A stretch of DNA of 51,554 bases from Patescibacteria group bacterium. GTDB taxonomy: Bacteria > Patescibacteriota > Minisyncoccia > Phycocordibacterales > SIBU01. Of the stretch, positions 6,438-51,123 are shown in pieces; the first letter of the stretch is position 1, and each line of letters begins with the position of its first letter. The position numbers and the translations under genes were made by a program. The notes beneath the pieces were generated by a model. It saw only the letters and a list, made by a program, of their open reading frames with translations. It did not search any database and had not been told where the DNA came from. The stretch covers positions 66,115 to 117,668 of the forward strand of contig JAZJZC010000003.1 in NCBI GenBank assembly GCA_040390045.1, written 5' to 3'.

Positions 6438-6468
6438 TTTTCAAACTACTCCTTTTTCTTTTCACTAA

Positions 6469-7562: not shown

Positions 7563-7787
7563 CTATCTGCGAAGAGACGTTATCTGACCCCTTGTTCTGT
7601 GTGCGGGGATAGACTGACTGCCTTGGTCTGAGTGTCTCTCCCAGTATAACCAGTCACAGTTGGCACCGCAGAACAGGAAGTTCCCATTTTGATGGCCAGC
7701 ATCCGTTTCCGGAATAATCATTCCGCAACGATCACAGGTCACTACAACTTGTGATGGGCCAAGTGAAAAGTTTCTTATTGGTTCCAT
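7563..7787 (-). CDS. small zinc-ribbon-like protein, hypothetical
   Basis: CDRCG...FCGANC Cys pairs. Start trimmed to MEPIRNF. Confidence 0.4.
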   Translation of the reverse strand: MEPIRNFSLGPSQVVVTCDRCGMIIPETDAGHQNGNFLFCGANCDWLYWERHSDQGSQSIPAHRTRGQITSLRR

Positions 7788-7871
7788 ACACACGCCTTCG
7801 TTTAGTTTCCTATTTAATAGTATCACTCACTATCTACGAAGCAACTCTGAAACTCTTGACGTCCATGAACT

Positions 7872-8468
7872 TTAATTCTGTTTTGTTGTTTTCGCCACGA
7901 AGTAGGTGCCTTTGTTTGCGAGCAGTTCGTAATTTCCAAAAATTTTATTGAAATTTTTCTCGATAAATCGGCTGAGACCAGAAATAGTCACAACGTAAAA
8001 TTCTCCGCCGGGCAATAAGTGCTGATGCGCTTCTTCAAAAAGGATCCAGAAAAATTCTTTGCTGATTTTGGCGGGGAGGTTGGAGACAATGGTTTGGAAC
8101 TGAATGTTTTTTGGCACTTGGTCAAAGCCGTTGCTGAGATAGGTTTGTGTATTTGTTGCGCTGTTTTGCACAGCATTCTTTTTGGCGTATGCAATTGCCA
8201 CGAAATCTTTATCAATCATGTGGACGGTTGTGTTCGGGTAAAGTTTGGCGAGAGGAATGCCGAGTGGACCGTAGCCACAGCCGAGATCAAGAATTTCGCC
8301 GGTTTGGTTTTCTTTCAAGTCAATTTTCTCCAGAAGTACTTTTGTACCCTCATCAATTTTTTCAGGGCTAAAGAGTCCCCAAGTGGTGGCAAAAGTAAAA
8401 GGCAGACCGCGGAGCGTGGCGTTGAATATAAGATCTTTTTTTAGGTCGGTGATGGGGATGGTGGGCAT
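7872..8468 (-). CDS. class I SAM-dependent methyltransferase (RsmC/RlmG-like small domain)
   Basis: ILDLGCGYGPLGIPLA (motif I), HMIDKDFVAI and VSNLPA (NPPF-like position). Confidence 0.75.
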   Translation of the reverse strand: MPTIPITDLKKDLIFNATLRGLPFTFATTWGLFSPEKIDEGTKVLLEKIDLKENQTGEILDLGCGYGPLGIPLAKLYPNTTVHMIDKDFVAIAYAKKNAVQNSATNTQTYLSNGFDQVPKNIQFQTIVSNLPAKISKEFFWILFEEAHQHLLPGGEFYVVTISGLSRFIEKNFNKIFGNYELLANKGTYFVAKTTKQN

Positions 8469-19595: not shown

Positions 19596-21932
19596 TTAAA
19601 TTTTAGATCCAAAATATTTCGCAAGACCGTATTGAACAACTAAAAGCGGAGAAATAATGCCCAAAATGATACCTAGATTAGCGAGGGAAATGTTTGGTGT
19701 GGCAACAGTGAAGAATATCGTAAGCCATGGAATATTGAAGACTGCCAGTAACAACAAAAACTCGGCCATACCAAGGAAAAGGATTTCCACTTTTTGCGAT
19801 CTTGTCACCGTTTCTTGGAAAACTTTTGGCGCGAAGACGAAGAAACTGAAACCAAAAATAATAAAGGCGAAGGAGACGAGGGTGTTCGGCTCTGCTAATT
19901 TCAAAAAATTTTGATTTAAGAAAAATATCGCGGCCACCCCAATAGTTTGAATGACTGATGAGGCAAAAGCAAAAGGCAGAACTCGTTTCAAAAACAAACC
20001 GCCGCTTGCTCTGCGAACTTTTGCCGGAGAGCGAACAACCCAATACGAAATAAGTGCTCCAGGTAAACCGATGACGCAGTAGTTGATCAGTGTGACGTTG
20101 AAAGGCGTGAGTGGGTAGGATATGTTTGCGATGCTGGTGATTATGAAAAACAAAAGGCCAATGAAGGTTTGGCTGAGAAACATACTTGAAAACATTTCAA
20201 GGTAGCGAATGATGTTGTCTGCCAATTCAACTCCTCCGGGGAGCGCGGAAAAACTGTTGTTGGTGAGAACAACTGACGCGAGACTTCGTATGGCTGGCGC
20301 GCCATCAAACATAGCAATGCCGAGGTCGGCGCTTTTGATGGCAAGCGCGTCGTTAGCGCCGTCGCCAATCATGGCCGTGAAGCCGTCTTTCTTAAAAGCT
20401 TCAATAATTTGGCGTTTTTGTTCTGGCAAAATACCAGCGAAGATGGCGTAGGATTTTACCTTTGTTTCGAAGTCTCGCTCGTTCCACAATTTCAATTCTT
20501 TACCACTGATTACGGTGTCGCTATTTTTCACTCCCGCCGCCGCGGCAACCGCGGCGGCCGTTTCCGGATTATCTCCCGAAATAATTCTAATATTCACACC
20601 TCGATTTTGGAAAAAATCGATAGTTTCGCGAATGCCTGGGCGAAGATCGCTATGAAATACAAAAACAGCGACTACGGAAAGTTTTGTTTGGTCCAAACTC
20701 TCAAGAGGCGTTTCTTCGGAGGCTCGGAAAAAACATAGACTGCGTTCTCCTTTGGTGGCCAGGGCAGCTAAAAGTTTTTCCAGCCAGAGTTTTTCTTCTT
20801 CACGTTCCATGTGCGGCAAGAAAATCTGTGCAGGCCCCGCGAAAATAACTTCTCCTTTCCCTGAACTATTTTTCAGAAGTGTCGCACCATATTGTCGCCA
20901 TGAGGAAAAGGGAAGCGCTTTTAAGATTGTGCCACCGTAACTTTTAGTGAGAAACTTTTTAATGGCATCGACTGTTTGTGATGAGTCGCCCGAACCTTCA
21001 AGGTATCCTGCAGAAAGCTCCTGTGCTTCTTCTTTTGTCACGCCGTCGGGGACTGAAATATCTTTGACCGACAAAATATTTTCGGTGATGGTGCCGGTTT
21101 TATCCATGCAAAGATTTTTGATGCGCCCGAGTTTCTCTGTGGCGTTGACCTCTTGAAGCAAGACGTGCTTGCGGAACAGGTTGGCCGCTCCGTAGGCAAA
21201 AAACAACGTGACAGCAAACACCAAACCTTGTGGCACCAAAATACTGGTTAAGGTTCCGATTTCCAGAACGACGTTTACTGCCGATTCATGGAGGATGATT
21301 CCACGCGTAACGACAAAGGCTAAAGAGATAATCAGAATGTAACTGAAAACTTTTATAATTTTCTCAGATGATTTTTGAATTAAACTCGCGTTCGTGGAAT
21401 ATTTTTTAATACCCTCAGTCATTCGAGCAATTCGGCTTTCAGTAAACGGAGTTTCGATTTCGATAGTGCTCGAGCCTGATGTGATAACCGAGCCGGCAAG
21501 AAGCGAGTCGGAATCTTTTTTGTTAATGGAGTCCGATTCTCCGGTTATCAAACCCTCGTTTACTTCTAGGTTGAAAGCATTGAGGACCCTGCTATCACAA
21601 GGGACCTGATCGCCGATTTTTAGTTTAATGACATCTCCTTTTTTAATCTGCTCCACCAAAATCAATTCCTCCGTTTTATCTTTCTTCACTCGCAATACTC
21701 GTGGCGCGGTCAAGAGTTGCAATTTCTGAAGTGCTCTCCATGCGCTGATGTCTTGAATTAAACCGAGAGAGGAGTTTATAACAACGATGATGCCAAGAAA
21801 AATTCCCGCGCGGACGTTACCAAAAGCGATAAGTAAAATTACGACTGCAATAATAATGGCATGCGTCATGAGAAATACATTCCGGTAGATGATGTATCCC
21901 AAATCACGAAGGTTGAGCGAATCTAATTTCAT
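19596..21932 (-). CDS. cation-transporting P-type ATPase
   Basis: DKTGTITEN phosphorylation motif, TGES, GDGANDALAIKSADLGIAM, and about 8 TM segments. Start set at MKLDS to avoid overlapping the divergent helicase gene. Confidence 0.85.
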   Translation of the reverse strand: MKLDSLNLRDLGYIIYRNVFLMTHAIIIAVVILLIAFGNVRAGIFLGIIVVINSSLGLIQDISAWRALQKLQLLTAPRVLRVKKDKTEELILVEQIKKGDVIKLKIGDQVPCDSRVLNAFNLEVNEGLITGESDSINKKDSDSLLAGSVITSGSSTIEIETPFTESRIARMTEGIKKYSTNASLIQKSSEKIIKVFSYILIISLAFVVTRGIILHESAVNVVLEIGTLTSILVPQGLVFAVTLFFAYGAANLFRKHVLLQEVNATEKLGRIKNLCMDKTGTITENILSVKDISVPDGVTKEEAQELSAGYLEGSGDSSQTVDAIKKFLTKSYGGTILKALPFSSWRQYGATLLKNSSGKGEVIFAGPAQIFLPHMEREEEKLWLEKLLAALATKGERSLCFFRASEETPLESLDQTKLSVVAVFVFHSDLRPGIRETIDFFQNRGVNIRIISGDNPETAAAVAAAAGVKNSDTVISGKELKLWNERDFETKVKSYAIFAGILPEQKRQIIEAFKKDGFTAMIGDGANDALAIKSADLGIAMFDGAPAIRSLASVVLTNNSFSALPGGVELADNIIRYLEMFSSMFLSQTFIGLLFFIITSIANISYPLTPFNVTLINYCVIGLPGALISYWVVRSPAKVRRASGGLFLKRVLPFAFASSVIQTIGVAAIFFLNQNFLKLAEPNTLVSFAFIIFGFSFFVFAPKVFQETVTRSQKVEILFLGMAEFLLLLAVFNIPWLTIFFTVATPNISLANLGIILGIISPLLVVQYGLAKYFGSKI

Positions 21933-22010
21933 TCTGGAATTATAGCAGAGAGTGGCATTGGCAAAAGCTCCAAAGCCCAAGTGCACCATTAAATTTGCTA
22001 CAATACCCCC

Positions 22011-23693
22011 ATGACTCAAGAGGCGGCTTTCACAATTTTAAAAACCGGGGCCAACGTTTTTTTGACGGGGGAGCCCGGCTCCGGAAAAACGCATAGCGTT
22101 AATCGCTACGTGGAATATTTGCGTGAACATGACATTGAACCAGCCATTACCGCTTCAACTGGCATTGCTGCGACGCATATTGGAGGTGTGACTATTCACT
22201 CATGGTCCGGCATCGGCATTGCCAAAGTTTTGTCGGAACAAGATCTCGATAAAATGGGAACCAACGAACGATTGACCAGGCGTGTTTCTCGCGCCAAAGT
22301 TTTGATCATTGATGAGATTTCAATGCTCGATGCTTTAACACTGACCGCGGTTGATCAGGCGTGTCGCGCACTCAGAAGAAATCAAGAAGTTTTTGGCGGA
22401 CTTCAGGTGGTGTTTGTGGGAGATTTTTTTCAGTTACCGCCAATCTCGAGAATGGGTGAGCCACCATCGAAGTTTGCCTTTATGTCGCCATCGTGGAAGG
22501 ATGCGTCGCCACTTATTTGTTATCTCACCGAGCAACACCGTCAGGATGACGAACAATTTATTTCCTTTTTATCGAGTCTTCGCAGTGGGGATGTGGATGA
22601 GGGTGCTCATTTAGCGCTCACCGAGAGAAGAATTGAACCAAAAGCCGGAGCGGCGCATACCCATACGCGATTGTATTCGCATAATATTGATGTCGACAAA
22701 GTGAATAATCAAAAATTAGCCGCCATTGCGAGCGACGTTCGTGAGTTTATTATGGATTCAGTTGGGCCGGAGAGATTATTACTCGGACTTAAAAAAGGCT
22801 GTTTGTCGCCGGAACGATTGTTGCTTAAAGTTGGCGCGCGAGTGATGTTTACCAAAAATAATTTTGAAGAAGGTTTTGCCAATGGAACACTCGGAGAAAT
22901 TTCCGGCTTTAGTGACACTGGCGCTCCAATAGTCGCGACGCTCGGCAGCGCTAAAATTGCAGTTGAGCCGATGGAGTGGACGATTACTGATGGTTCAAAA
23001 ACTTTGGCTAAAATTACCCAAGTGCCGCTTCGACTTGCCTGGGCCATAACGGTGCACAAAAGCCAAGGTATGACACTCGATGCGGCGGTGATTGATCTTT
23101 CTCAGGCGTTTGAATACGGCCAAGGCTACGTAGCGCTTTCACGAGTCCGTTCATTTTCGGGTTTGTTTTTACTCGGGTACAACCAGCGCGCGCTTGAAGT
23201 CCACCCAGACATTTTAGTTGTTGACAGTAAGTTTAAGGAGCAGTCGGAAGAGGCGGGCGATGCTTTTGAAAAATTGTCCCCAGCAGAACTTCAAAAAATG
23301 GAGAAAAATTTTATTCGAGCTTGTGGAGGAACTCCTGAGAAGATACAACCTAAGAAACTTAAAAGTTTAAAAAAGAAAATTCCTGGCGTGACAACATACG
23401 ACGAAACCTTTGACTTGTGGAAGGCGGGGAAGTCAATCGCCGAGATTGCAACGTTGCGTGAGATCGGCACGCGAACGGTCACTGCTCATTTTGAGGAACT
23501 TTTCATGCGAGGAAAAGTCACTACAGACGATTTGCGGAAAATTATTTCAATCGAGGCCGAAAAAAATTTAACCGAAATTAGAGCAGTGTTTAAAGAACTG
23601 GGCTCTGAAAAATTGGCACCGGTGTTTGAGGCACTCGGCAAAAAATATTCATACGATGATCTCAATCTCATTCGCGCCGCATTTTTGAAATAG
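22011..23693 (+). CDS. PIF1/RecD-like SF1 DNA helicase with C-terminal HTH domain
   Basis: Walker A GEPGSGKTH, VLIIDEISML, VGDFFQLPPI and AITVHKSQGMTLD. The C-terminal segment KSIAEIATLREIGTRTVTAHFEEL is HTH-like. Confidence 0.8.
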   Translation: MTQEAAFTILKTGANVFLTGEPGSGKTHSVNRYVEYLREHDIEPAITASTGIAATHIGGVTIHSWSGIGIAKVLSEQDLDKMGTNERLTRRVSRAKVLIIDEISMLDALTLTAVDQACRALRRNQEVFGGLQVVFVGDFFQLPPISRMGEPPSKFAFMSPSWKDASPLICYLTEQHRQDDEQFISFLSSLRSGDVDEGAHLALTERRIEPKAGAAHTHTRLYSHNIDVDKVNNQKLAAIASDVREFIMDSVGPERLLLGLKKGCLSPERLLLKVGARVMFTKNNFEEGFANGTLGEISGFSDTGAPIVATLGSAKIAVEPMEWTITDGSKTLAKITQVPLRLAWAITVHKSQGMTLDAAVIDLSQAFEYGQGYVALSRVRSFSGLFLLGYNQRALEVHPDILVVDSKFKEQSEEAGDAFEKLSPAELQKMEKNFIRACGGTPEKIQPKKLKSLKKKIPGVTTYDETFDLWKAGKSIAEIATLREIGTRTVTAHFEELFMRGKVTTDDLRKIISIEAEKNLTEIRAVFKELGSEKLAPVFEALGKKYSYDDLNLIRAAFLK

Positions 23694-33567: not shown

Positions 33568-34509
33568 TTGGCAATGGCTCGCATACATTTCAACGACAAC
33601 GAAATAAAATCAGAGGGAGTGACCATTCTTAACGGCCGTGTGTTGCGCGACCAAGGTGTGGATAGGTTAAAAACCGCCATTGTGCAAAGCGGCAGGAAAC
33701 CGACCTTGGCCATCATACAGGTGGGGGATCTCGCTGAATCCAAAGCCTACATTGAGCAAAAAAGAAAATTTGCTGAGAAAATTGGCGCAGGTTTTTTTCA
33801 TACCCAATTTCCGAATGATGTTTCTCAGGCTGATCTCGAAAACGCTATTGAAAAACTAAATGTTGATCCGGGCATCCACGGTATTATTGTTCAGTTGCCG
33901 ATTCCAGAATCTTTCAACAAACAAAAAGTGATCGACACTATTAGTGTTTCGAAGGACACTGACGGACTCACATCAGAAAATAAAAAATTGCTTGAGTCTG
34001 GAAATTCCAAAGCGGTAATTCCCGCAACTGCACGAGGGGTTTTATCACTTCTGCGCGGATACGATGTTTCCGTTTCTGGGAAAAAAGTGACGGTAATAGG
34101 AAGATCGGCGTTAGTCGGCGCCCCGATTGCAACACTGTTGGCGCGAGAGGGGGCGGAAGTTACGGTTTGTCATCGGGAAACCAATAATGTTCCTGAAAAA
34201 AGTAGAAACGCTGAGATTCTGATTGTCGCCGTTGGCCACCCCCATTTTGTAACTGTCGAATACGTTTCGAAGGGTCAGGTGGTGGTTGACGTCGGTATCA
34301 ACTCAGTGGCTAGCAGCACGTTCAAACAAGAAAGTGTTGAAAAATTGGAGTATGAAATCCCAAAGCGGCAATTGGTAGGGGATGTCGATTTTGAAGCTGT
34401 TAAAAATATTGTCGCCGCCATTTCACCAGTTCCCGGCGGAGTGGGGCCGATGACAGTGCTTTCTTTATTCGAGAATCTGATTGAGGCAGCAGCGGTTGAC
34501 AATAGGTAA
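33568..34509 (+). CDS. folD: bifunctional methylene-THF dehydrogenase / methenyl-THF cyclohydrolase
   Basis: KPTLAIIQVGDLAESKAYIEQKRK, GIIVQLPIP, VIGRSALVGAPIA and PVPGGVGPMT. Confidence 0.9.
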   Translation: MAMARIHFNDNEIKSEGVTILNGRVLRDQGVDRLKTAIVQSGRKPTLAIIQVGDLAESKAYIEQKRKFAEKIGAGFFHTQFPNDVSQADLENAIEKLNVDPGIHGIIVQLPIPESFNKQKVIDTISVSKDTDGLTSENKKLLESGNSKAVIPATARGVLSLLRGYDVSVSGKKVTVIGRSALVGAPIATLLAREGAEVTVCHRETNNVPEKSRNAEILIVAVGHPHFVTVEYVSKGQVVVDVGINSVASSTFKQESVEKLEYEIPKRQLVGDVDFEAVKNIVAAISPVPGGVGPMTVLSLFENLIEAAAVDNR

Positions 34510-37791: not shown

Positions 37792-38207
37792 ATGAAAACT
37801 AAACTATACGTCGGTTGCGCCCTAGGAGGACTGACCGAAGACAATAAAAAAGAATTTCTTGAAAAGATTGTTCGGGTTAAAAATATTTTGAGAGGTCAAG
37901 GATTTGAAGTTTTAGAATTTGTGGGATTGGGAGAACACACACCTGCCGAGATTTACCAGCACGATATTTTGGGCTGTGTTGCCGCCTGCGATGCCATGCT
38001 TGCGATTTGTGATTATCCCTCCACGGGGATGGGCTATGACTAGCGACTGTTATTGAGAAGCGTGGCTTGCCAGTGCTCGCTGTGGCTCACACAGACTCAT
38101 TTGTTTCCAAAATTGTTCGCGGTATCTCTAAACCAAATTTTCATTTCGAGCGATACACGGATTTTGAAAAGGAAGTTCCGGCGCTAGTGGAAAAATATTT
38201 AAAATAA
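37792..38207 (+). pseudogene. nucleoside 2-deoxyribosyltransferase-like gene interrupted by a frameshift
   Basis: The first frame ends ...CDYPSTGMGYD-stop at 38041-38043. The reading continues from 38043 in another frame as ATVIEKRGLPVLAVAHTDSF...EKYLK, with the stop at 38205-38207. Restoring one nt in tatga-ctagcg would give GMGYELATVIEK. Confidence 0.65.
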
Positions 38208-38297: not shown

Positions 38298-38951
38298 TTA
38301 TTTTTTCTCCTCAGGTGACTTGAGTACCGCGAAATCTGCTTTTAGTTTTCGAATTTGGCCTTTCATAATGAGTGTGGCTTCGTCGCGTTTTTCCCGACCG
38401 ACGCCATCGACGATGTCTTTTTTGTGGTATTTACTTTTACGTGCGTTGACTGCTTCAGTTAGTTCTTCAAAAACAATTTGGCAGACGCGCTCTCCAGGAT
38501 AGAGCCTGACCGCTTGCGAATGAGTGTTATTACGAAGAGGAAGAGTGAGTTGTCCCTCGTACCCTGAATCGATAATACCGGTAAGATCGAGAGAAAGTCC
38601 TTTGCGGTTGGTGGATGATCTTGGGTAGAGCACCGCCATCAAATCTTTAGGAATTTTAATAGTTTCAAGTGTTGAAACCAATACGTATTCGTGAGGCAAC
38701 AGTTCAAAATATTGTCCCTCTTCAAGTTCCACAACATCGAAAAAGCCGCTGTTATTTTTATCGAAGTGGGTGTTGTCGAGCGACTCTCTGCCGTTCGCAG
38801 TCAGGTGCCAAATTTTAGGAATAAGAAATGTAAATCCCAATCGAAGGTCAACGGCGTGTTCCTGCAGTTGCATGCTGTCGAGGTTTGGGCTAAAAGTGAT
38901 TTCACCTTTCTCGACGCGTTCGATAATTTGTTTTTTGGTTATGACGCTCAT
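38298..38951 (-). CDS. dCTP deaminase (Dcd) family protein lacking the catalytic Glu
   Basis: AVDLRLG, PRSSTNRKGL and GIIDSGYEGQLTLPLRN. An ungapped local match to E. coli IDPGWSGCIVLEFYN places Pro138 (codon 38538-38540) at Glu138. Confidence 0.75.
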   Translation of the reverse strand: MSVITKKQIIERVEKGEITFSPNLDSMQLQEHAVDLRLGFTFLIPKIWHLTANGRESLDNTHFDKNNSGFFDVVELEEGQYFELLPHEYVLVSTLETIKIPKDLMAVLYPRSSTNRKGLSLDLTGIIDSGYEGQLTLPLRNNTHSQAVRLYPGERVCQIVFEELTEAVNARKSKYHKKDIVDGVGREKRDEATLIMKGQIRKLKADFAVLKSPEEKK

Positions 38952-38998: not shown

Positions 38999-39496
38999 CT
39001 AAGATTTGCGGATGTAAACTTGATAATCAGCGTCAAATGGGTTTTTATCATCCTTCGCTTCAAATTTTGATTCGGTAAGTTTCCAGATTGTTGGATCAAG
39101 GGGAGGGAAGAAGGCGTCACCTTCAATCGTTGTGTGAATGAGTGTTCGGTATACCTTGTCGGTTTTTGGAAAAGCCTCAGCATACAAGTGAGCTCCACCA
39201 ATATTAAATACCTCTGTTTCGGCTGAGGTTTTTTCAAGGGCTTCTTCAAAAGAATGAACAACGATACATCCAGGCGCTTTGAAATCCGCATTACGTGTTA
39301 CGACAATATTAACTCGATCGGGAAGGGGTTTGCCCAAACTATTCATGATGGATTCGTACGTATTTCGGCCCATAATCACCGTATGGCCTTTTGTTATTGC
39401 GGCAAAATGTTTTTGATCGCTAGGCATTCGCCAAGGGATTTTATTACCTTGTCCGATGACGTTATTTTCTGACGTGGCGACAATTATCGATAGCAT
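38999..39496 (-). CDS. folA: dihydrofolate reductase
   Basis: IIVATSENNVIGQGNKIPWRMPSDQKHF, IMGRNTYESI and FNIGGAHLY. Confidence 0.9.
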   Translation of the reverse strand: MLSIIVATSENNVIGQGNKIPWRMPSDQKHFAAITKGHTVIMGRNTYESIMNSLGKPLPDRVNIVVTRNADFKAPGCIVVHSFEEALEKTSAETEVFNIGGAHLYAEAFPKTDKVYRTLIHTTIEGDAFFPPLDPTIWKLTESKFEAKDDKNPFDADYQVYIRKS

Positions 39497-39498
39497 AG

Positions 39499-40335
39499 TT
39501 ATAAAGCGATTTTGAGGCCTTTAATGGCTTCGTGTGGTTTGTATTGATTAGTTAGATTTTCTACAATTTCTTCCACCAATTTTTTATCTTGTTTTTCAGC
39601 ACGGTCGAAGGCATTTTTTGGCAAGCTTAAAACAATTTTTGGATGATTGTTTTCGCGTTTGATCATTTCGTCAGCTGCAAAATAGTGATTGTCGTAAATG
39701 TGCGCGTTGGAAATTGAATGCGAGTAAATTCCGGGACGAACTCCTAATTTTTGCGCCAGAATGTGAGCGAGTAGAGCAAAACCGGCGACGTCAGAGGGAA
39801 ATCCCAGAACGATATCGTTTGATCGGACGATGTTGTGAAAATTTAGTCGTCCGCCAATAATATTTACGGTAAATGTATATGGGCAGGGAACATTTTTTTT
39901 CACAGCTCCACCAAGCCCATCTTGCGCCGGATCCCAAGTCACCACCACGCCGTGTCGGGAGCTCGGTTCTTTTTGCAAAAGTTTAATGAGTAATCCAAGC
40001 TGGTCGCGACCGAAGTGTTTCCGCCATCGATAGCCATAGGCAACAGTGACCACATCTCCCGGGTTGGTAAACATGTCCCAAATTTTTGTAAATTGTCGCA
40101 GGAAAATTTCGGGCTTCCTTGCGCCGGTAATAAACCAAACTTGTTCGGCCACAAACATTGGTATTGGAATTTTCCGCAAGGTCAAAAGAGGGAAGCCATC
40201 TTTTTCAAGATCAATGGAAAAATGCATGCCGGGAATAGCTTTGGTTTCGTGTCCGGTGCGCTCGTTCATCTCAGAGATACCCTTGGTTTGGATATCTTTC
40301 AGGATGTTTTTATAGACTTCATCGAATATTGCCAT
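39499..40335 (-). CDS. thymidylate synthase (ThyA) family enzyme with dCMP-type specificity residue
   Basis: RTGHET, EQVWF, AYGYRWR, nucleophile Cys151 (codon 39883-39885), RSND and LGFPSDVAGFALL. Asp182 (codon 39790-39792) aligns without gaps to E. coli Asn177. The C-terminal IKGLKIAL is TS-like. Confidence 0.8.
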   Translation of the reverse strand: MAIFDEVYKNILKDIQTKGISEMNERTGHETKAIPGMHFSIDLEKDGFPLLTLRKIPIPMFVAEQVWFITGARKPEIFLRQFTKIWDMFTNPGDVVTVAYGYRWRKHFGRDQLGLLIKLLQKEPSSRHGVVVTWDPAQDGLGGAVKKNVPCPYTFTVNIIGGRLNFHNIVRSNDIVLGFPSDVAGFALLAHILAQKLGVRPGIYSHSISNAHIYDNHYFAADEMIKRENNHPKIVLSLPKNAFDRAEKQDKKLVEEIVENLTNQYKPHEAIKGLKIAL

Positions 40336-40407: not shown

Positions 40408-40911
40408 ATGAATATTCCTTTTCCCTACATGCCCGAAGGACGAACCGTTAAATTTGTCCCTGCTCATGATCGATTTATGCGCGCGGCTGAAACAGCGTGC
40501 AGGGAACTTTCGACAGATTATAACCATCCGAATGGCGCAGTCTTGGTTAAAGACGGAACGGTAATTGCTCGCGCCGCAAATCAGTCTGGTTTGAAGAATA
40601 AAAAAATGCTTCAACTTCATAAAGCCGGTTGGTGTGTGCGCCGCATTTTAAAAATTCCTTCAGGGCAAAAATATTGGCTTTGCCCGGGATGCGCGTCATC
40701 AAAAAATCATTCCGAAACGCGTGTCGTCAAAACTGCTCAAAAACAAGGGCTGGATACTACAGGGGCTGATGTCTATCTGTGGGGACACTGGTGGTGTTGT
40801 GAACCGTGTTGGAATTCGATGATCGCCGGCGGTATCAAAGATGTCTATCTTCTTGAGGGCAGTGATAAGCTTTTTAATCCTAAATTTCCGGAAAATATAA
40901 TTGGAAAGTAG
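40408..40911 (+). CDS. CMP/dCMP-type zinc deaminase with Cys-rich insert
   Basis: HSE (HxE) and CCEPCWNSM (PCxxC-like) zinc motifs. There is an extra CVRR...CPGC segment between them. Start set at the ATG at 40408. Confidence 0.7.
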   Translation: MNIPFPYMPEGRTVKFVPAHDRFMRAAETACRELSTDYNHPNGAVLVKDGTVIARAANQSGLKNKKMLQLHKAGWCVRRILKIPSGQKYWLCPGCASSKNHSETRVVKTAQKQGLDTTGADVYLWGHWWCCEPCWNSMIAGGIKDVYLLEGSDKLFNPKFPENIIGK

Positions 40912-41079: not shown

Positions 41080-42252
41080 ATGAAAGACAAACAAATTGAA
41101 AAACTTATAAAACTCGAAGAAGCTCGGCAGAAGAAGGTGATCAATCTTATCGCTTCGGAAAATTATGTTTCAAAAGATGTGTTGACAGCACTCGGTTCAA
41201 AACTGACCGACAAGTATGGGGAAGGGTATCCAGGAAAAAGATATTATCGCGGTACAAAGGTTGTCGATGAGGTTGAATTGCTCGCGCAAAAACGCGCGTT
41301 GGAACTTTTTGATCTTGATCCGCAACGGTGGAGTGTCAACGTCCAGCCGCTTTCAGGTTCGCCTGCCAACTTCGCAGTGTATTCCGCGCTTGTGCCACCA
41401 GGAGGGAAAATTATGGGTATGACACTCTCGCATGGAGGACATCTCACTCACGGTCAACCAGTTTCTATGACTGGAAAATTTTGGATGCAAGTGCCGTATG
41501 GACTTTCAAAAGAAACTGAACAACTTGATTATGAAGAAGTAAAAAAAATTGCTGTTGCTGAAAAGCCCAACATTATCGTTGCGGGTTTTACCGCCTACGC
41601 GCACGTGGTAGATTTCAAAAAGTTTCGAGAAATTGCAGACGCTTCAGGAGCAATTCTCATGGTAGACATGTCGCATTTCGCGGGACTTGTAGCAGGAAAA
41701 GTGTATCTGTCACCATTTTTGTATGCTGACATAGTGACTACTACTACGCACAAAACACTTCGCGGTCCGCGTTCGGCCATGATTTTTTCCAAAATTGACG
41801 AACGCGAGTTTAACAAAAAAATAGACAAAATTATTATTCCAGGTCTTCAAGGTGGCCCACACTTCAATCAAATTGCCGCGGTGGCTGTTGCTCTCAAAGA
41901 AGCCAATACGCCCGCATTCAAAAAGTACGCGTCCCAAATAATTAAAAATGCGAAAGTGCTAGCGGACGAACTTGCCAAACTTGGCTGGAGAATTGTTGAA
42001 GGTGGGACAGAAACCCATTTGTTGCGCGTTGATGTTTGGCAAGACGGGAAAGGAATTAGCGGGCGAGAAGCGGCAGATAAACTGGAAGCGGCGGGAATTA
42101 TTGTTAACGAAAATACGATTCCTTTCGATACTAGAAAACCCATGGATCCATCGGGCATTCGTCTCGGTACGCCAGCAGAAACGACACGCGGAAAAAAAGA
42201 AAAAGATTTTCGCAAGATTGCGCAGAAAATAGATGAAGTTTTGAGAAAATAA
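41080..42252 (+). CDS. glyA: serine hydroxymethyltransferase
   Basis: LIASENYVS, GYPGKRYY, LSHGGHLTHG and TTTTHKTLRGPR (PLP lysine). Confidence 0.95.
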   Translation: MKDKQIEKLIKLEEARQKKVINLIASENYVSKDVLTALGSKLTDKYGEGYPGKRYYRGTKVVDEVELLAQKRALELFDLDPQRWSVNVQPLSGSPANFAVYSALVPPGGKIMGMTLSHGGHLTHGQPVSMTGKFWMQVPYGLSKETEQLDYEEVKKIAVAEKPNIIVAGFTAYAHVVDFKKFREIADASGAILMVDMSHFAGLVAGKVYLSPFLYADIVTTTTHKTLRGPRSAMIFSKIDEREFNKKIDKIIIPGLQGGPHFNQIAAVAVALKEANTPAFKKYASQIIKNAKVLADELAKLGWRIVEGGTETHLLRVDVWQDGKGISGREAADKLEAAGIIVNENTIPFDTRKPMDPSGIRLGTPAETTRGKKEKDFRKIAQKIDEVLRK

Positions 42253-42254: not shown

Positions 42255-42647
42255 ATGAATGAAATTCCCCAAAATGTTCCGGAACAACCTATCAATGTAT
42301 ATCTTACACAACTTCGTAAAGCCCTCGACTCAAAGGACGCAACGCTTCTTGGGTCAGTCATAAATGGAATTCAGAGAAATGTTCAAGGGACAGATAGGAC
42401 AAGTTTTTCACCTTTGGATGATGAGGATATCCGTACGCTACTGGAAACCGGAAGAGCAGAGATAAACGTAGGTACTGGAACACATGGTCAGCGTATCTAT
42501 ATTAAGGATGCGGAATTACATATGCCTCCTGGCGGCCCTAGGGTTGAAAAGGCAAAAGTTGTAATCGAACAGAGGATGAACTTCAAACGTTTATTTGATT
42601 TGCCTCTTGATTTATCCGACACTGAAGACTTGCGGGTTAGATTTTAA
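42255..42647 (+). CDS. hypothetical protein (130 aa), orphan
   Basis: The ATG lies 2 nt after the glyA stop, which suggests translational coupling. No motif recognised. Confidence 0.5.
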   Translation: MNEIPQNVPEQPINVYLTQLRKALDSKDATLLGSVINGIQRNVQGTDRTSFSPLDDEDIRTLLETGRAEINVGTGTHGQRIYIKDAELHMPPGGPRVEKAKVVIEQRMNFKRLFDLPLDLSDTEDLRVRF

Positions 42648-42694: not shown

Positions 42695-43015
42695 ATGAAT
42701 CCAGAACAGCCTGAAAATTTGGGCAAGGTTTCTAAGAGTGCTATGTTTCATTCCCAAGAGGATTTTCAAAAGGATGAAGCCATGCGTGAATCGGCGTATA
42801 GGAAAATGGAAAAATATGCCACTGATCTGGGTTGCCAATTTAGTAGCTACAATGGTTCTCGTTATATTGAATTTAAAACCTGGCAGGAAGCATTAGATTT
42901 TCAGGAGTTCTGCGATACAGAATTCGGTTTTAAGGTTAAGGTGAATGACCCAGCAAAAACTGACGGTAGGTTTTTAAAGCCAGGATACAAAGTGTTTCCT
43001 GTGTTTGAGAGTTAA
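42695..43015 (+). CDS. hypothetical protein (106 aa), orphan
   Basis: Clean ORF, acidic/aromatic. No motif recognised. Confidence 0.45.
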   Translation: MNPEQPENLGKVSKSAMFHSQEDFQKDEAMRESAYRKMEKYATDLGCQFSSYNGSRYIEFKTWQEALDFQEFCDTEFGFKVKVNDPAKTDGRFLKPGYKVFPVFES

Positions 43016-43420: not shown

Positions 43421-43783
43421 ATGAGCAAAAGAAGATGGCGGAGGTACAGCGAATGTGATTTGGGGAAGGAGTTTATGGAGCTTGCTGAGAAATTAGGTTT
43501 GACCAAAACAAAACTAGCAAAGGCCCTTGGAGTTACTCCAAATTGTATTTTTAAGATTTTTCGTGGTGATCAACCAAGTATCCGACTCGTCGTTTCTTTA
43601 AGGGCGCTGGTACTTTTACACGAATCTTCACAGCCGGTTGCTATCGCTCGACTGCTCACAAACCTTTCACATGAAGGCCGAGTCCAGGTCGGAGGACAAC
43701 TCACCGGAAGTGGGATGCAACTTTTGGAATTATTCGATCCAACGACTCTGAGCCCGAGCGCGGAAGACGATTACCAAATTTAA
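43421..43783 (+). CDS. XRE-like helix-turn-helix protein
   Basis: LAEKLGLTKTKLAKALGVTPNCIFKIFRGDQ. Confidence 0.6.
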   Translation: MSKRRWRRYSECDLGKEFMELAEKLGLTKTKLAKALGVTPNCIFKIFRGDQPSIRLVVSLRALVLLHESSQPVAIARLLTNLSHEGRVQVGGQLTGSGMQLLELFDPTTLSPSAEDDYQI

Positions 43784-43788
43784 TTTTC

Positions 43789-43830
43789 AAAGACGCACTC
43801 CGTTTATGGTTCGCGTCTTTTTTCTTTTTT
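43789..43830 (+). terminator. intrinsic terminator, module copy 2
   Basis: aaagacgc-actccgtttatggttc-gcgtcttt followed by a T-run. Confidence 0.75.
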
Positions 43831-43894
43831 AAACTTGAGGAAGTTTAGGTCGCGTGGTAGTGTTCAAACAGCTTACAGAACAACTCATGCGTTT

Positions 43895-44215
43895 ATGGCA
43901 AAACACAGGATTGATATTGAGTTAGCAGGGCTCGCCAGGGAGTTTCAGCAACTTTTTCTCATGAGCGGGTGGAATCAAAGAGAGTGCGCCCAGCATCTTG
44001 GGGTATCCTTTACCCACATTAATGGAATTCTTAATGGTGGCGGCCAACCATCCGTAACTCTGGTTAAGTTAATTAAGTTGATGGTTGAAGGACCGACAAA
44101 AACAGACTACAGATCACTAATTCTAGTTCTTGAAAAGTTTCCTGTCGCAACTCGTGCAGAAATAATAGGGTCACTTGAGACTTTACTTCGCAGTAGTCTC
44201 GCTCGAAAGTTTTGA
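43895..44215 (+). CDS. XRE-like helix-turn-helix protein (paralog of 43421-43783)
   Basis: SGWNQRECAQHLGVSFTHINGILNGGGQPSVTLVKLIKL has the same layout as RGDQPSIRLVVSLRAL in the upstream gene. ATG at 43895. Confidence 0.6.
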   Translation: MAKHRIDIELAGLAREFQQLFLMSGWNQRECAQHLGVSFTHINGILNGGGQPSVTLVKLIKLMVEGPTKTDYRSLILVLEKFPVATRAEIIGSLETLLRSSLARKF

Positions 44216-44258: not shown

Positions 44259-44915
44259 ATGTCGTGTATGACGCAGAAAGGAAAATTTATTGTGATCGAT
44301 GGTGGGGAAGGGGCAGGGAAAAGTACCCTGATGGGTTTTTTGCCGGAAATTTTTCCCTCGACGCCGAGCTCGGGACAAGCCACATTTCTAGCTACACGCG
44401 AGCCTGGAGGTTCTCCGTTTGCTGAAGAAATTCGCAATTTGATGCTTTCTCGTCCCGAATCAAAAAATGCTTCGCCTGAAACTCAGTTTGGTCTTGTGTG
44501 GGCCGCGCGACACGACCACCTTCAGAAAAAAATTATTCCAGCACTTAATGAGGGAGTTCATGTTATTTCTGATCGCTTCGATTCTTCAACCTACGCCTAT
44601 CAAATTTTTGGCCAAGAGGCGCCGCAATTAGAAAAACTTTTTTGGGATATTCGTAATATTTACTTACGTGATGCGCAGCCTGACCTCTATATTTTTCTCG
44701 ATATCGATCCTGCGATTGGCCTCAAGCGTGTGGCAGAACGTCGCAAGGAGACAGACCATTTTGATCAGCGGAAATTGGATTTTCACCAGAGAATTCGCGA
44801 AGGCTATTTAGAATTTCTAAAAAAAGTACCAAGCGTGATTATTGATTCGAGTGGCACAATTCCGGAGGGGAAGGAAAAGTTTTTTGAGGCAATAAAAAGC
44901 GCCCTATTAAAATAA
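44259..44915 (+). CDS. tmk: thymidylate (dNMP) kinase
   Basis: FIVIDGGEGAGKST, TREPGG, DRFDSSTYAYQ. Start moved to the ATG at 44259 (or 44268), downstream of the terminator. Confidence 0.85.
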   Translation: MSCMTQKGKFIVIDGGEGAGKSTLMGFLPEIFPSTPSSGQATFLATREPGGSPFAEEIRNLMLSRPESKNASPETQFGLVWAARHDHLQKKIIPALNEGVHVISDRFDSSTYAYQIFGQEAPQLEKLFWDIRNIYLRDAQPDLYIFLDIDPAIGLKRVAERRKETDHFDQRKLDFHQRIREGYLEFLKKVPSVIIDSSGTIPEGKEKFFEAIKSALLK

Positions 44916-44919: not shown

Positions 44920-45342
44920 ATGGAAATTAAAATTAAACGATTACACCCCGACGCCAAATTGCCGAGTTACGCTCATCCGGGAGACGTGGGGCTTGATCTG
45001 TTTTCGTTGGAGGAGGTGACGGTAGCTCCCGGAGCGCACCATCGTTTTGCTAACGGTTTCGCTTTAGAATTTCCAGAGGGTTACGCCGCTATCGTCAAAG
45101 ACAAGGGAGGTATTTCAAAAGCAGGACTTCATTGTATGGGCGGAGTGTTTGATGCAGGATTTCGTGGCGAGTACAATGTGCATCTGGTAAATTTAGGTGA
45201 CAAAGCGTACACCTTTGAAAAAGGTGATAAAGTGGCACAACTCGTGATTTTTCCGGTGGCAATTGCTAAGCTTGTTGAGGCGAAGGAACTTTCAGATAGC
45301 AGTAGGGGGATGGGGCAGTTTGGGAGCACTGGAAGAAAGTAG
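44920..45342 (+). CDS. dut: trimeric dUTPase
   Basis: GDVGLDL, GGVFDAGFRGEY and RGMGQFGSTG. Motif 2 is atypical (KDKGG instead of PRSG). Confidence 0.8.
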   Translation: MEIKIKRLHPDAKLPSYAHPGDVGLDLFSLEEVTVAPGAHHRFANGFALEFPEGYAAIVKDKGGISKAGLHCMGGVFDAGFRGEYNVHLVNLGDKAYTFEKGDKVAQLVIFPVAIAKLVEAKELSDSSRGMGQFGSTGRK

Positions 45343-47517: not shown

Positions 47518-50500
47518 ATGGACGAAAATCTCAAGAAAAATCCACTAGTGGAAAACGAAGAAAAAACTCTGAAATTTTGGCGTGAAAATAGTATTTTCGA
47601 GAAATCTTTGGCCAAAGAGTCGCCAAAAGGTGAGTTTGTTTTCTATGAAGGCCCCCCAACAGCCAACGGTCGCCCCGGTATTCATCATCTCGAGGCGAGA
47701 GCTTTTAAAGATGCCATTCCTCGATACAAAACCATGCAAGGGTTCCATGTTCGTCGCAAAGGCGGTTGGGATACGCACGGGCTTCCCGTTGAGTTGGCGG
47801 TTGAAAAAGAACTTGGCCTTAAATCAAAAAAAGAAATTGAAGTATACGGCATCGAGGCTTTTAATAAAAAATGCAAAGAAAGTGTTTGGAAATTTGTCAG
47901 TGAGTGGGAAGAATTTACCCAGCGCATCGGCTACTGGGTTGATCTGAAAAATCCTTATGTTACTTACAAACCAGAGTACATTGAATCGGTCTGGAATATT
48001 GTTAGTAAAATAAACGAACAGGGACTTTTGTATAAAGATTACAAGGTGGTGCCGTGGTGTCCGAGGTGTGGCACCGGGCTTTCGAGCCACGAACTGGCAC
48101 AGGGGTATGAGGATGTGAAGGATTTGTCGGTTACAACTAAGTTCAAAGTTAAAAGTGAAAAGTTTAAAAGTAAAGACGGGGAGGAAACCTATTTGTTGGC
48201 ATGGACGACTACGCCGTGGACACTTCCTGGAAATGTCGGACTAGCTGTTGGAGAAAAAATTACCTACCAGCTCGTTGTATCGGAAGGGTTACAGTATATC
48301 GTTGCCAAGGAGCGAGCAGCAACAGTTTTCAAAGAAAAAACTTTTGAAGTAGTTCAAGATATTTCAGGCAAAGAACTTATTGGTTTGGAATACGAACCAC
48401 TGTACCCATTTCTCAAAGATAATCTTTCCGAGACTGAAAAACCAAAATTGGCCAATGCGTTTAAGGTTTATCCTGCGAATTTTGTAACCACAACCGATGG
48501 AACTGGAATTGTGCACACTGCAGTGATGTATGGAACGGATGACTTTGAGCTTGGCAATAAAGTTGGCTTACCGAAACATCACCTGGTCAAAGAAGACGGA
48601 ACCTTTAAAGAAGAAGTTGGTTTTTTGGCGGGGAAATTTGTGAAGCCCGCCCGAACGACTGAAGCCAGTGTTCAGTCGGGCGGGGATGAAGGCGTCGACA
48701 TTTTGATTATAAAAGATTTAGCCGGACGTGGGTTGTTATTCTCAAAGGAAAAATATTCTCACAGTTATCCGCACTGTTGGCGCTGTCACACCCCACTTAT
48801 CTATTTCGCCCGAGATTCTTGGTACATCAAGATGTCTGCGCTTCGCGAAAAATTACTTTCAGAAAATGAAAAAATAAATTGGGAACCCGATTATATTAAG
48901 CATGGCCGGTTTGGTGAATGGTTGAAGGACGTAAAGGATTGGGCAATTTCCCGAGAGCGATATTGGGGAACGCCGTTACCTGTTTGGAAAACTTCAGCTA
49001 CTTCGGGAAACGCCGAAAAATATGTCGTAATCGGATCAATTGCTGATCTCAAAAAGTATGCCAAAAAATCTGGCAATACCTATTTCGTAATGCGTCACGG
49101 CGAGTCGGTTCACAATCTTGAGTGGAGGATCAGTACTACGCACGACAATCGTGAGGATTGTCTGACTGAAAAAGGTAAAGCTCAGGCTTTAGCTTCAGCG
49201 CAAACCCTCAAGGATAAAAAAATCGATATGATCGTAGTTTCGCCGTTCAAAAGAACCAGAGAAACTAGTGAAATTGTGCGAGAGGCTTTGGGTTTGTCAC
49301 CAGAAAAAGTAACCCTCGATGAACGATTGCATGAGATCGGGGTGTATTCCTTTGAAGGAAAAACATGGGAAGAGTACCATGAGGTTTTTCCTAAAACTGA
49401 AGAATATTTTACCGCCAAGCGTGACGGTGACGAATCATATCTTGATGCGAAGATAAGAATGATGAAAGTTCTGTACGAGTACGAATCTAAATACCAAGGA
49501 AAAAATATTCTGTTTGTCACTCATGGAGGCCCAGGCTGGCTTCTTAATGCCGGTTCCCATGGACTATCACTATCTGAAACCTACAGTGCGATTAGTTCAA
49601 TTGATAACGCTCGACAGGATGGAATTAAAAACGCTGAAATTCGAGAGCTTGATTTTGTTCCTCTGCCACATAATGAAAATTATGAACTCGATCTCCATCG
49701 ACCGTTCATCGACGCAATCGAACTTATCGATGAAAATGGCGCGCCTATGACTCGCGCTAAAGAAGTGATGGATGTTTGGTTTGATTCAGGGGCAATGCCG
49801 TTTGCTCAGGACGCGGATCTACGCCGAACAGACGCAGAATCCGCCGCGGCGGACGGAAAAAAATCGTGGGACGATATTTCTTACCCTGCGGATTTTATTT
49901 CTGAGGCCATCGACCAGACTCGCGGTTGGTTTTATACGTTGCACGCAATTGGCGTACTGACCGGGAAGGGAAGAGCCTACAAAAATGTTATTTGCCTTGG
50001 ACATATTTTGGATGCCGAAGGCAAGAAGATGTCGAAATCTGTCGGGAACGTGGTTGACCCGCACAAAATGATTGAAAAGTATGGCGCAGACCCATTACGA
50101 TTTTGGATGTACAGTGTTAATCAACCCGGAGAGCCAAAAAATTTTGACGAAAAAACGGTAGATGAGATCGTGAAAAAGGTTTTTAATCTCACATCGAACG
50201 TTCTCACTTTCTACCAGTTGTATGCAGAAACAGAACACGGATCACAGAACACAGAACACGAAAAGCAAATCAGTAACAACGTTTTAGACCAATGGATACT
50301 CACTCGACTCAATCAACTCGTTGCCGAAGTTACAACCTCTCTCAATTCTTATAAATTACTCGAACCAACTCGGGCGATCCGTGATTTTATCGCCGACCTA
50401 TCGCAGTGGTATTTGCGGCGATCGCGCGACAGATTTAAGGGGGAAGATGAAGCGGATAAAAATTCTGCTCTACAAACTACAAATTACGTACTGCTGACTC

Positions 50501-51123
50501 TTGCGAAAGTCATGGCTCCATTTACTCCATTTTTTGCTGATTTCTTGTACAAAGGAGTTGAGGGAAAAGAGCAAAGTGTTCATTTGGAGAAATGGCCCGA
50601 AGAAAGTTTAAAGTTTAAAGTTGAAGGTTTAAAAGTTCTGGAGCAAATGGAAGAAGTGAGAAAAATTGTTTCGCTTGGATTAGAACAACGAGCAAAGGCT
50701 GGGATAAAAGTTCGACAACCGCTCCAAAAATTAAAAATTAAAAGTGAAAAGTTAAAAATTTCTGACAAGGATTTTCTCGGGCTCGTGAAAGATGAAGTGA
50801 ACGTCAAAGAAGTCGTCATTGATCTCAGTCTGTCGACCGAAGTAGAACTCGATCTCAACATCACTCCCGAACTTAAAGAAGAGGGAAGTGTTCGAGAATT
50901 TGTTCGCGCGATACAGGATTTGAGAAAGACCAGTGGATTTAATCCAGGTGAATTAGCTGAGCTTACTGTTGATGCGGACGAAAAAACTTTACAATTTTTA
51001 CAGAAATACGAGAAAGATCTCATCAAATCGACTCAATTAAAGAAAATTCAATATGCCTCTGTGTCAGGCGGGACAGAAGTTTCTCTCGAGGAAGCAAAGG
51101 TAAAAATTTCTATTTCTAAATAA
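47518..51123 (+). CDS. ileS: isoleucine--tRNA ligase (type 2) with inserted histidine-phosphatase domain
   Basis: PPTANGRPGIHH (HIGH), WTTTPWTLPGN, WAISRERYWGTPLPVW, DVWFDSGAMPF and KMSKSVGN. At 1201 aa it is long for IleS. Confidence 0.9.
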   Translation: MDENLKKNPLVENEEKTLKFWRENSIFEKSLAKESPKGEFVFYEGPPTANGRPGIHHLEARAFKDAIPRYKTMQGFHVRRKGGWDTHGLPVELAVEKELGLKSKKEIEVYGIEAFNKKCKESVWKFVSEWEEFTQRIGYWVDLKNPYVTYKPEYIESVWNIVSKINEQGLLYKDYKVVPWCPRCGTGLSSHELAQGYEDVKDLSVTTKFKVKSEKFKSKDGEETYLLAWTTTPWTLPGNVGLAVGEKITYQLVVSEGLQYIVAKERAATVFKEKTFEVVQDISGKELIGLEYEPLYPFLKDNLSETEKPKLANAFKVYPANFVTTTDGTGIVHTAVMYGTDDFELGNKVGLPKHHLVKEDGTFKEEVGFLAGKFVKPARTTEASVQSGGDEGVDILIIKDLAGRGLLFSKEKYSHSYPHCWRCHTPLIYFARDSWYIKMSALREKLLSENEKINWEPDYIKHGRFGEWLKDVKDWAISRERYWGTPLPVWKTSATSGNAEKYVVIGSIADLKKYAKKSGNTYFVMRHGESVHNLEWRISTTHDNREDCLTEKGKAQALASAQTLKDKKIDMIVVSPFKRTRETSEIVREALGLSPEKVTLDERLHEIGVYSFEGKTWEEYHEVFPKTEEYFTAKRDGDESYLDAKIRMMKVLYEYESKYQGKNILFVTHGGPGWLLNAGSHGLSLSETYSAISSIDNARQDGIKNAEIRELDFVPLPHNENYELDLHRPFIDAIELIDENGAPMTRAKEVMDVWFDSGAMPFAQDADLRRTDAESAAADGKKSWDDISYPADFISEAIDQTRGWFYTLHAIGVLTGKGRAYKNVICLGHILDAEGKKMSKSVGNVVDPHKMIEKYGADPLRFWMYSVNQPGEPKNFDEKTVDEIVKKVFNLTSNVLTFYQLYAETEHGSQNTEHEKQISNNVLDQWILTRLNQLVAEVTTSLNSYKLLEPTRAIRDFIADLSQWYLRRSRDRFKGEDEADKNSALQTTNYVLLTLAKVMAPFTPFFADFLYKGVEGKEQSVHLEKWPEESLKFKVEGLKVLEQMEEVRKIVSLGLEQRAKAGIKVRQPLQKLKIKSEKLKISDKDFLGLVKDEVNVKEVVIDLSLSTEVELDLNITPELKEEGSVREFVRAIQDLRKTSGFNPGELAELTVDADEKTLQFLQKYEKDLIKSTQLKKIQYASVSGGTEVSLEEAKVKISISK
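49081..49620 (+). other. histidine phosphatase (PGAM/CobC-like) domain embedded in IleS
   Basis: YFVMRHGESVHN (RHGxxxxN), SPFKRTRETS, LHEIGVYSFEGKTW and FVTHGG. It lies between the conserved WGTPLPVW and DLHRPFID segments. Confidence 0.7.

Follow-up and report, generated by a model that had tools for sequence, protein, structure and literature searches.

In the textbook order of thymidylate synthesis, cytosine is converted to uracil first, by Dcd or by a deoxycytidine monophosphate (dCMP) deaminase, and ThyA then methylates deoxyuridine monophosphate (dUMP). To our knowledge, every cell is assumed to form deoxythymidine monophosphate (dTMP) from dUMP via ThyA or ThyX. A route that begins with dCMP has previously been proposed only for phages with 5-methylcytosine (5mC) DNA. 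Here we analyze a thymidylate synthase (TS) homolog encoded in a 51,554-nucleotide stretch from a Patescibacteria group bacterium (assembly GCA_040390045.1, contig JAZJZC010000003.1, positions 66,115 to 117,668), which is referred to below, in its whole length, as the window. An earlier reading of the letters alone, hereafter the original prediction, had proposed that this protein is a dCMP-type enzyme. We compare it with the phage enzymes and describe a surrounding gene cluster that may make dTMP by methylating cytosine before deaminating it.

The Asn177-to-Asp substitution converts TS from dUMP to dCMP, as the original prediction had said, and no other sites tell TS homologs of modified-cytosine contigs from those of unmodified contigs as well as positions 177 and 147 do (PMC8670742). 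Asp is common to every cytosine-using member of the TS family, and a preference for ribose requires Ala and Lys at TS Ser167 and Arg126' (PMC5175136). When the homolog of phage Xp12 and seven metavirome Asp177 homologs were assayed in E. coli with T4 gp1, 5-methyl-dC was formed by the Xp12 homolog and by five of the seven (bioRxiv 10.1101/2024.12.05.627091). Phage deaminases encoded beside Asp-type TS genes are 5mC-selective and have been proposed as the source of dT from 5mdC nucleotides, and in viromes the co-localization of deaminase and TS reaches 70% in modified contigs versus 6% in unmodified ones (Yang et al., bioRxiv 2024). The gene in the window and its two diagnostic sites are as follows.

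39499..40335, minus strand: TS-fold protein, predicted methylenetetrahydrofolate (CH2-THF)-dependent dCMP C5-methyltransferase of the Xp12 type (PF00303, E 5.7e-52; AlphaFold2 and Foldseek)
39790..39792, minus strand: codon GAC of Asp182, the pyrimidine-specificity position, equivalent to E. coli Asn177 (codon check; HMMER and MAFFT alignments)
39880..39885, minus strand: Cys151, the nucleophile (TGC, 39883-39885), and Pro152 in the place of E. coli His147 (CCA, 39880-39882; alignment and codon check)

The open reading frame (ORF) encodes 278 amino acids and is matched over its full length by the Pfam Thymidylat_synt model with 176.9 bits against a cut-off of 24.3, which places it in the TS superfamily. 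The original prediction had put Asp182 at the Asn177 position by an alignment without gaps from Cys151 onward, and two alignment programs agree with it. In HMMER alignments to solved ThyA structures, the query segment 'rsndivlgfpsdvagfall' stands opposite 'rsadiflgvpfniasyall' with top posterior confidence, and MAFFT, applied to E. coli ThyA and 120 homologs, gives the same register, ungapped from Cys151 to about residue 228. These homologs are the 120 best database matches, all at least 72% identical to the query, and come from Parcubacteria, Taylorbacteria and similar groups where named. Cys151, Arg171, Asp174, His212 and Tyr214 of the query pair with Cys146, Arg166, Asp169, His207 and Tyr209 of E. 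coli ThyA, and the predicted spacings of 20 residues between C151 and R171 and 38 residues between D174 and H212 are identical in the two proteins. The canonical catalytic set (E. coli Cys146, Arg166, Asp169, Glu58, Tyr94, His207 and Tyr209) is complete in the query, with C151, R171, D174, E64, Y100, H212 and Y214 invariant in the 121 aligned sequences. Two residues expected of a canonical ThyA are replaced, Asn177 by Asp182 and His147 by Pro152. The equivalents of TS Ser167 and Arg126' are Ser172 and Arg127, again invariant, rather than the Ala and Lys of the MilA type, so that a 2'-deoxy substrate is expected and a MilA-like CMP enzyme is argued against.

The AlphaFold2 model, built from a 40-sequence alignment, has a pLDDT of 95.5 and a pTM of 0.93. 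Foldseek aligned it to bacterial ThyA structures, ternary complexes included, with TMq values of 0.81-0.85, which describes a closed-form, TS-like protein; PDB 1njc, the L. casei N229D enzyme with dCMP, is among the matches. The C-terminus, ...HEAIKGLKIAL, is of the full TS type, as the original prediction had noted, and extends about 45 residues beyond the end of T4 gp42.

Asp182 is kept in all 121 close homolog sequences of the MAFFT alignment. When GTDB species were scanned with one genome each, 391 genomes proved to have a close relative, and 80 loci were read; all 80 listed genomes are Patescibacteria or unclassified metagenome-assembled genomes. Across these loci Asp182 and Asn173 are each present in 80/80 and Pro152 in 78/80. 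One G-to-A mutation in the codon (GAC to AAC) is all that a return to Asn would take, and Asp is nonetheless invariant. In a sensitive search of cluster representatives at 50% identity, every full-length match that covers the site carries Asp down to rank 66, and the first canonical Asn/His sequence appears at rank 67 (E 1.3e-38). A neighbor-joining tree of 137 cluster representatives, which is rough, places the query inside a 117-tip clade in which all members have Asp, none has Asn and a single one has His147. The query belongs to a 22-tip subclade that is the sister of the Xp12-like subclade and does not lie within it. Asp at the 177 position is a clade trait and no chance substitution: it holds in the close homologs, in the species loci and throughout the all-Asp clade.

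Of the 50,697 phage records searched, those that matched best were from Rhodobacter phage RcRudolph, Xanthomonas phages including Xp12, Pseudomonas phage PaMx74 and Achromobacter phages. In pairwise BLASTP the query is 37% identical to the RcRudolph TS homolog (E 1e-64), 35% to that of PaMx74 (E 1e-57) and 35% to that of Xp12 (E 6e-56), compared with 28% for E. coli ThyA (E 3e-30) and 22% for T4 gp42 (E 3e-9). By these comparisons the phage Xp12 enzyme is the closest characterized relative of the TS homolog, and a preference of the homolog for dCMP appears probable. The original prediction had also drawn attention to an RSND motif shared with T4 dCMP hydroxymethylase. The motif is indeed found in the query and in gp42, and the quoted T4 segment, MRSNDVVFGFRNDYA, is contained in gp42 (NC_000866). 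Its reading as a T4-like functional signature did not hold, as the Xp12 type, the closest group that forms 5mdC, has RSSD, and Asn173 is confined to the close family from the candidate phyla radiation (CPR).

The genes around the TS homolog include the following.

33568..34509, plus strand: FolD-like methylene-THF dehydrogenase/cyclohydrolase (tblastn with the FolD of the related genome L004, PF00763/PF02882, 45% identity, E 6e-75)
38298..38951, minus strand: dCTP-deaminase (DCD)-fold protein of 217 amino acids, predicted (d)NTP pyrophosphatase (PF22769, 1.5e-34; TIGR02274, 122 bits)
38999..39496, minus strand: dihydrofolate reductase (DHFR), in the same operon, 2 nt downstream of the TS homolog (PF00186, 1.2e-55)
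40408..40911, plus strand: CDA-fold deaminase of the dCMP-deaminase type, divergent from the TS homolog (PF00383, 8.2e-10)
41080..42252, plus strand: serine hydroxymethyltransferase (SHMT), which supplies CH2-THF (PF00464, 3.6e-156)
44268..44915, plus strand: thymidylate kinase, Tmk (PF02223, 6.3e-37); the listed ORF start is 44175 and the likely ATG is at 44268
44920..45342, plus strand: canonical trimeric dUTPase, Dut (PF00692, 9.1e-23)

The DHFR gene is thus the next gene of the operon, as predicted; 47 nt separate it from the DCD-like gene, and 72 nt lie between the TS homolog and the divergent deaminase. The linkage recurs across species. The deaminase gene is directly upstream and divergent in 79 of the 80 loci, the DCD-like gene is directly downstream on the same strand in 77, and in all four loci that lack one or the other the contig ends near the TS gene on that side. 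Within 6 kb of the TS homolog, SHMT is found in 64/80 loci, DHFR in 45/80, Tmk in 38/80 and Dut in 18/80. In two database homologs an Asp-type TS is fused to a partner enzyme, in P0140 (433 aa) to a dCMP deaminase and in P0166 (424 aa) to a MazG/PRA-PH pyrophosphohydrolase. The genes for NusG and L11 adjoin the cluster, which identifies the DNA as bacterial chromosome, and the window holds seven tRNA genes.

The DCD-like protein lacks the residue on which dCTP deamination depends. Where the catalytic Glu of dCTP deaminase is expected, E138 in E. coli, it has Pro138 (CCT, 38538-38540), its segment 'gqltlPlrn' aligning with 'gqitlElfn' and 'ghitlEls' of solved DCD structures (4xjc, 2qlp and 2qxx). 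Pro occupies this column in 73/73 aligned orthologs, and the protein still passes the TIGR02274 (dCTP deaminase) cut-off of 92.8 bits. Both proteins that would be expected to handle uracil, the DCD homolog by its Glu-to-Pro and the TS homolog by its Asn-to-Asp change, are altered in the same direction, toward a base that is kept as cytosine. Since a canonical Dut is present, the Glu-less DCD homolog would be redundant as a dUTPase.

The deaminase carries the zinc and catalytic motifs of its fold, HSE at 40708-40716 and CEPC at 40798-40809. In the orthologs, which follow the pattern H[AS]E plus PCxxC, the His is present in 76/79, the Glu in 77/79 and both Cys in 78/79. Searched against PDB as a single sequence, it matched only guanine deaminase, at 2e-3; searched as a family profile, dCMP deaminases rank first (4p9c at 1.9e-8, 2hvv at 2.8e-8). 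The ComEB model matches it weakly, with 22 bits against a cut-off of 219. Even an ordinary dCMP deaminase (DCTD) takes 5-methyl-dCMP as a substrate, and the allosteric-site motif of dCMP deaminase is G(Y/W)N(A/G) (PMC12088426). At this site most CPR orthologs have GANG and the window protein has AANQ, and these proteins may respond differently, or no longer, to the usual regulators dCTP and dTTP. Only 7 nt separate the end of a TATAAT box from the deaminase ATG at 40408, a spacing that points to an mRNA which is leaderless or nearly so.

We lean, if only slightly, toward a housekeeping route to thymidylate in which methylation precedes deamination (dCTP to dCMP to 5-methyl-dCMP to dTMP). What we show are the residues, how well they are conserved, where the protein falls in the tree and how the genes are linked; from these we infer every substrate of the route. 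The Glu-less DCD-fold enzyme would hydrolyze dCTP to dCMP without deamination. The TS homolog, as Asp182, Pro152 and homology suggest, would then methylate dCMP to 5-methyl-dCMP and leave the folate as dihydrofolate, from which DHFR, SHMT and FolD would regenerate CH2-THF. The divergent dCMP-deaminase-type enzyme would convert the 5-methyl-dC nucleotide to the dT nucleotide, that is, 5-methyl-dCMP to dTMP; the dTMP would be phosphorylated by Tmk, and Dut would be left for sanitation. The DHFR gene only 2 nt downstream, the full TS C-terminus and the TS-like closed-form model support reductive chemistry. The choice of a dCMP-type TS with reductive methyl transfer over hydroxymethylation, made in the original prediction, is likewise favored by Xp12-type kinship, Pro152, the Ser/Arg pair, the DHFR gene and the C-terminus, although it stays a prediction of substrate. 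Neither the flanking deaminase nor the Glu-less DCD homolog figured in that prediction; the two indicate that the 5-methyl-dCMP probably serves as the source of dTMP.

No ThyX, second ThyA or C5 DNA methyltransferase was detected by tblastn in the window and the 80 loci, 844 kb of local sequence only. The queries were T. maritima ThyX, M.HhaI and E. coli ThyA, the last of these verified for its length and for Cys146/Asn177. A ThyX-motif regular expression, applied to the window only, gave no match either.

Several observations weigh against the dCMP-first route. The members assayed as 5mdC-forming enzymes are of phage or metavirome origin, and the cellular members are known from sequence alone. 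The genomes may hold a second, canonical thyA or a thyX, or thymidine salvage, elsewhere. The DCD-like protein has a motif, 'IDSGYEG', that looks dUTPase-like. The CPR deaminase has only the fold in common with the Xp12 deaminase (E 0.38), so that a preference for 5mC can not be transferred to it by homology; the deaminase half of a fusion protein, P0140, likewise has no useful homology to it (E 0.008), and the 5mC-selective deaminase (mSCD) trait is polyphyletic and without a known sequence signature. Moreover, the phage deaminase studied in detail acts on a triphosphate, 5mdCTP (bioRxiv 10.1101/2024.12.05.627091). Finally, the TS homolog passes the NCBIfam thymidylate synthase model TIGR03284, with 126.1 bits against a cut-off of 108.35; it fails seven other NCBIfam ThyA equivalog models, for example NF002497 with 141 against 327.

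The last of these points leads to the conventional explanation, that the protein is an ordinary TS which methylates, despite Asp182, the dUMP made by the neighboring dCMP deaminase, in a normal dTMP operon where the DCD-like protein serves as a second dUTPase. All of the other ThyA catalytic residues are there (R26, E64, Y100, R127, C151, R171, S172, D174, H212 and Y214), DHFR, SHMT, Tmk and Dut are the neighbors of a thymidylate operon, and besides passing TIGR03284 the gene is annotated as thyA everywhere (PMC12455944; PMC4508563 Table S1). What speaks against an ordinary TS is that Asp is invariant in the 80 species and the 117-tip clade although one G-to-A change restores Asn, that His147 has been lost as well, and that the DCD partner has lost the very residue that production of uracil nucleotides calls for. 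The same Asn-to-Asp replacement is the documented switch from dUMP to dCMP (PMC8670742), and tested members of the clade form 5mdC (bioRxiv 10.1101/2024.12.05.627091). On this evidence we consider an ordinary TS unlikely.

A second explanation keeps the Xp12-like chemistry and changes its purpose. Here the main task of the enzymes would be to put 5-methylcytosine in the place of all or most C in the bacterial DNA; the DCD-like protein would clear dCTP, a kinase would lift 5-methyl-dCMP to the triphosphate, and the deaminase would divert a part of it to dTTP. The 5mdCTP substrate of the phage deaminase (bioRxiv 10.1101/2024.12.05.627091) suits this scheme, and the cluster runs parallel to the modules of phages that have 5mC for C, in which an NTP pyrophosphohydrolase, an Asp-type TS, a dCMP deaminase and DHFR follow the same logic. 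Virus-like contigs, too, encode CPR-type TS and deaminase proteins and even a Pro-type DCD. Four such IMG/VR contigs, L088-L091, with many small co-directional ORFs, encode TS homologs 49-61% identical to the query; L089-L091 have the CPR-type deaminase, L088-L090 have Dut, and in L091 (e.g. 5001-7934) a DCD-like gene encodes Pro in place of the catalytic Glu ('LVLPITN'). It seems that Patescibacteria and what are presumed to be their phages exchange this module. Against bulk replacement of C, no 5-methyl-dCMP kinase was identified, the ordinary Tmk being the sole kinase nearby; bulk 5mC in CPR DNA is unreported in the literature searched, whose coverage is limited; and a housekeeping need for dTMP is the simpler account of the conservation. 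We regard this explanation as distinctly unlikely. Its broadest form, that a large Patescibacteria branch (Taylor-, Adler-, Kaiser-, Colwell-, Nomurabacteria and other Paceibacteria) incorporates 5-methyl-dCTP genome-wide and has 5mC for most or all of its C, seems quite improbable.

A T4 gp42-like dCMP hydroxymethylase, making 5-hydroxymethyl-dCMP for a modified base or for 5-hydroxymethyl-deoxyuridine, would share Asp at the specificity position and RSND with the query but is very improbable, given an identity of only 22% to gp42 (E 3e-9) as against 35-37% to the 5mdC-forming clade, a TS-like C-terminal segment that gp42 is missing, an operon DHFR that would be superfluous for a non-reductive enzyme, and no glucosyltransferase or other tailoring genes nearby.

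To return to the dCMP-first route, what appears to be new is the cellular, chromosomal and apparently housekeeping setting of an Xp12-type enzyme, in at least 391 species, together with a deaminase family other than the phage one and the recruitment of an altered dCTP-deaminase homolog. A search of the CPR/Patescibacteria literature on TS, dCMP, 5mC and thyX found nothing relevant. In the CPR, thymidylate-metabolism and MetaGPA literature searched, the gene is called thyA in CPR work with no tie to the Asp switch, and in the supplement of Nelson & Stegen none of the COG numbers of dcd, comEB, folA, thyX, dut and tmk was found. If the route is real, hundreds of species in a very large bacterial radiation would use dCMP to 5-methyl-dCMP to dTMP, and a core pathway would have been rewired through the change of one residue in each of two proteins, Asn to Asp in TS and Glu to Pro in DCD. 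The CPR annotations 'thyA' and 'dcd', and the metabolic reconstructions that rest on them, would then be wrong. Patescibacteria might also be a cellular reservoir of the phage cytosine-modification toolkit, and methylome-sequencing technology would gain new dCMP methylases together with candidate deaminases that act on 5mC. The existence of bulk 5mC DNA in any cell would become a directly testable question; were the 5mC-genome explanation to prove true, these bacteria would be the first known cells whose bulk DNA contains a non-canonical base, made by a module common to them and their phages.

Other features of the region were noted. Two ORFs follow SHMT on the plus strand, at 42255-42647, starting 2 nt past the SHMT stop, and at 42695-43015. 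Both were considered as parts of the module and rejected, with no Pfam or NCBIfam match and no counterpart in the 80 loci; they are lineage-specific or spurious. Between Dut and Tmk, genome L004 (8230-8970, minus strand) encodes a 246-aa protein with two CPxC…CxC clusters and no Pfam match, and the corresponding space of the window, 43421-44215, instead holds two small XRE-type helix-turn-helix proteins. A frameshifted conserved gene of about 143 aa lies at 37792-38201 on the plus strand of the window, either as a pseudogene or through an assembly error; an 83-aa ORF at 37792-38043 is its N-terminal part and residues 91-138 continue in another frame at 38064-38201. Its intact ortholog in L006 (2488-2919) is a weak match, below the cut-off, to nucleoside 2-deoxyribosyltransferase PF05014 (E 2e-4), and in 11 of the 80 loci the family adjoins the TS/DCD cluster. 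The nucleoside 2-deoxyribosyltransferase fold is also that of MilB, which is partner to the TS homolog MilA, and a link of this gene family to the TS pathway is possible. Among the database proteins, P0173 (432 aa) is a further Asp-type TS fusion, with an HNH endonuclease, and P0125 (466 aa) has a 190-aa N-terminal extension without a family match. Farther away, the window (47518-51123, plus strand) and L004 (477-4028) each encode an IleRS-like class-I aminoacyl-tRNA synthetase (tRNA-synt_1, Anticodon_1, DUF5915), of 1201 aa in the window, with a histidine-phosphatase domain inserted in its catalytic domain (His_Phos_1, residues 523-689, E 2.4e-32), an architecture that is the same in both. 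At 19596-23693, a P-type ATPase (807 aa, minus strand) and a Pif1-like helicase with a C-terminal HTH_40 (560 aa, plus strand) are divergent, and their starts overlap by 9 nt.

How, then, does the system compare with those already described? With canonical ThyA (EC 2.1.1.45) the TS homolog shares the fold, the dimer-type active site, folate-dependent reductive methylation, and the coupling to DHFR and SHMT. It differs by Asn177 to Asp182, His147 to Pro152, Trp83 to Phe89, Phe176 to Ser181, Arg127 to His128 and Cys168 to Asn173, besides insertions and deletions, and its predicted substrate is dCMP rather than dUMP. The engineered dCMP methylases E. coli N177D and L. casei N229D likewise place Asp on a TS scaffold, but these are point mutants, whereas the query is natural and belongs to an anciently diverged clade with further active-site changes. 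T4 gp42 and MilA/BcmA also present Asp to the N3/N4 face of cytosine, and gp42 has RSND as well. However, gp42 is distant and has a short C-terminus where the query has the TS closing segment and its coupling to DHFR, and MilA has Ala176 and Lys133' where the query, of the deoxy type, has Ser and Arg (PMC5175136).

The Xp12-type enzymes are closer. Like the query, they combine Asp at 177 with Pro at 147 (C-P … Y-D in Xp12, PaMx74 and RcRudolph), carry the signatures 'AYGYRWRxHFGRDQ' and 'WDPAxDGLG…NVPCP', are missing the 'AWPTPDG' insert and have a 'DGLG' insert ahead of NVPCP. They belong to the same all-Asp clade, and their genes are linked to a CDA-fold deaminase, DHFR and an NTP pyrophosphatase. 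The query differs from them in being chromosomal and apparently housekeeping, next to the NusG/L11 genes; in its ThyA-like C-terminus IKGLKIAL, where the phage proteins have NPKPEV-I/V; and in Asn173 and His128, where they have Ser and Arg. The phage deaminase is unrelated in sequence, and the phage pyrophosphatase is of the HAD or MazG type, whereas that of the Patescibacteria is DCD-fold. The phage mSCD route (Yang et al., bioRxiv 2024) is the nearest parallel to the route proposed here: an Asp-type TS makes 5mdCMP, a co-located enzyme of the dCMP-deaminase family leads on to dT nucleotides, and the dUMP-specific TS is bypassed. The phage route was described for phages whose DNA is fully 5mC-substituted, in contrast with a cellular chromosome in the present case, and the Patescibacteria cluster uses another deaminase family and adds a Glu-less dCTP-deaminase homolog.

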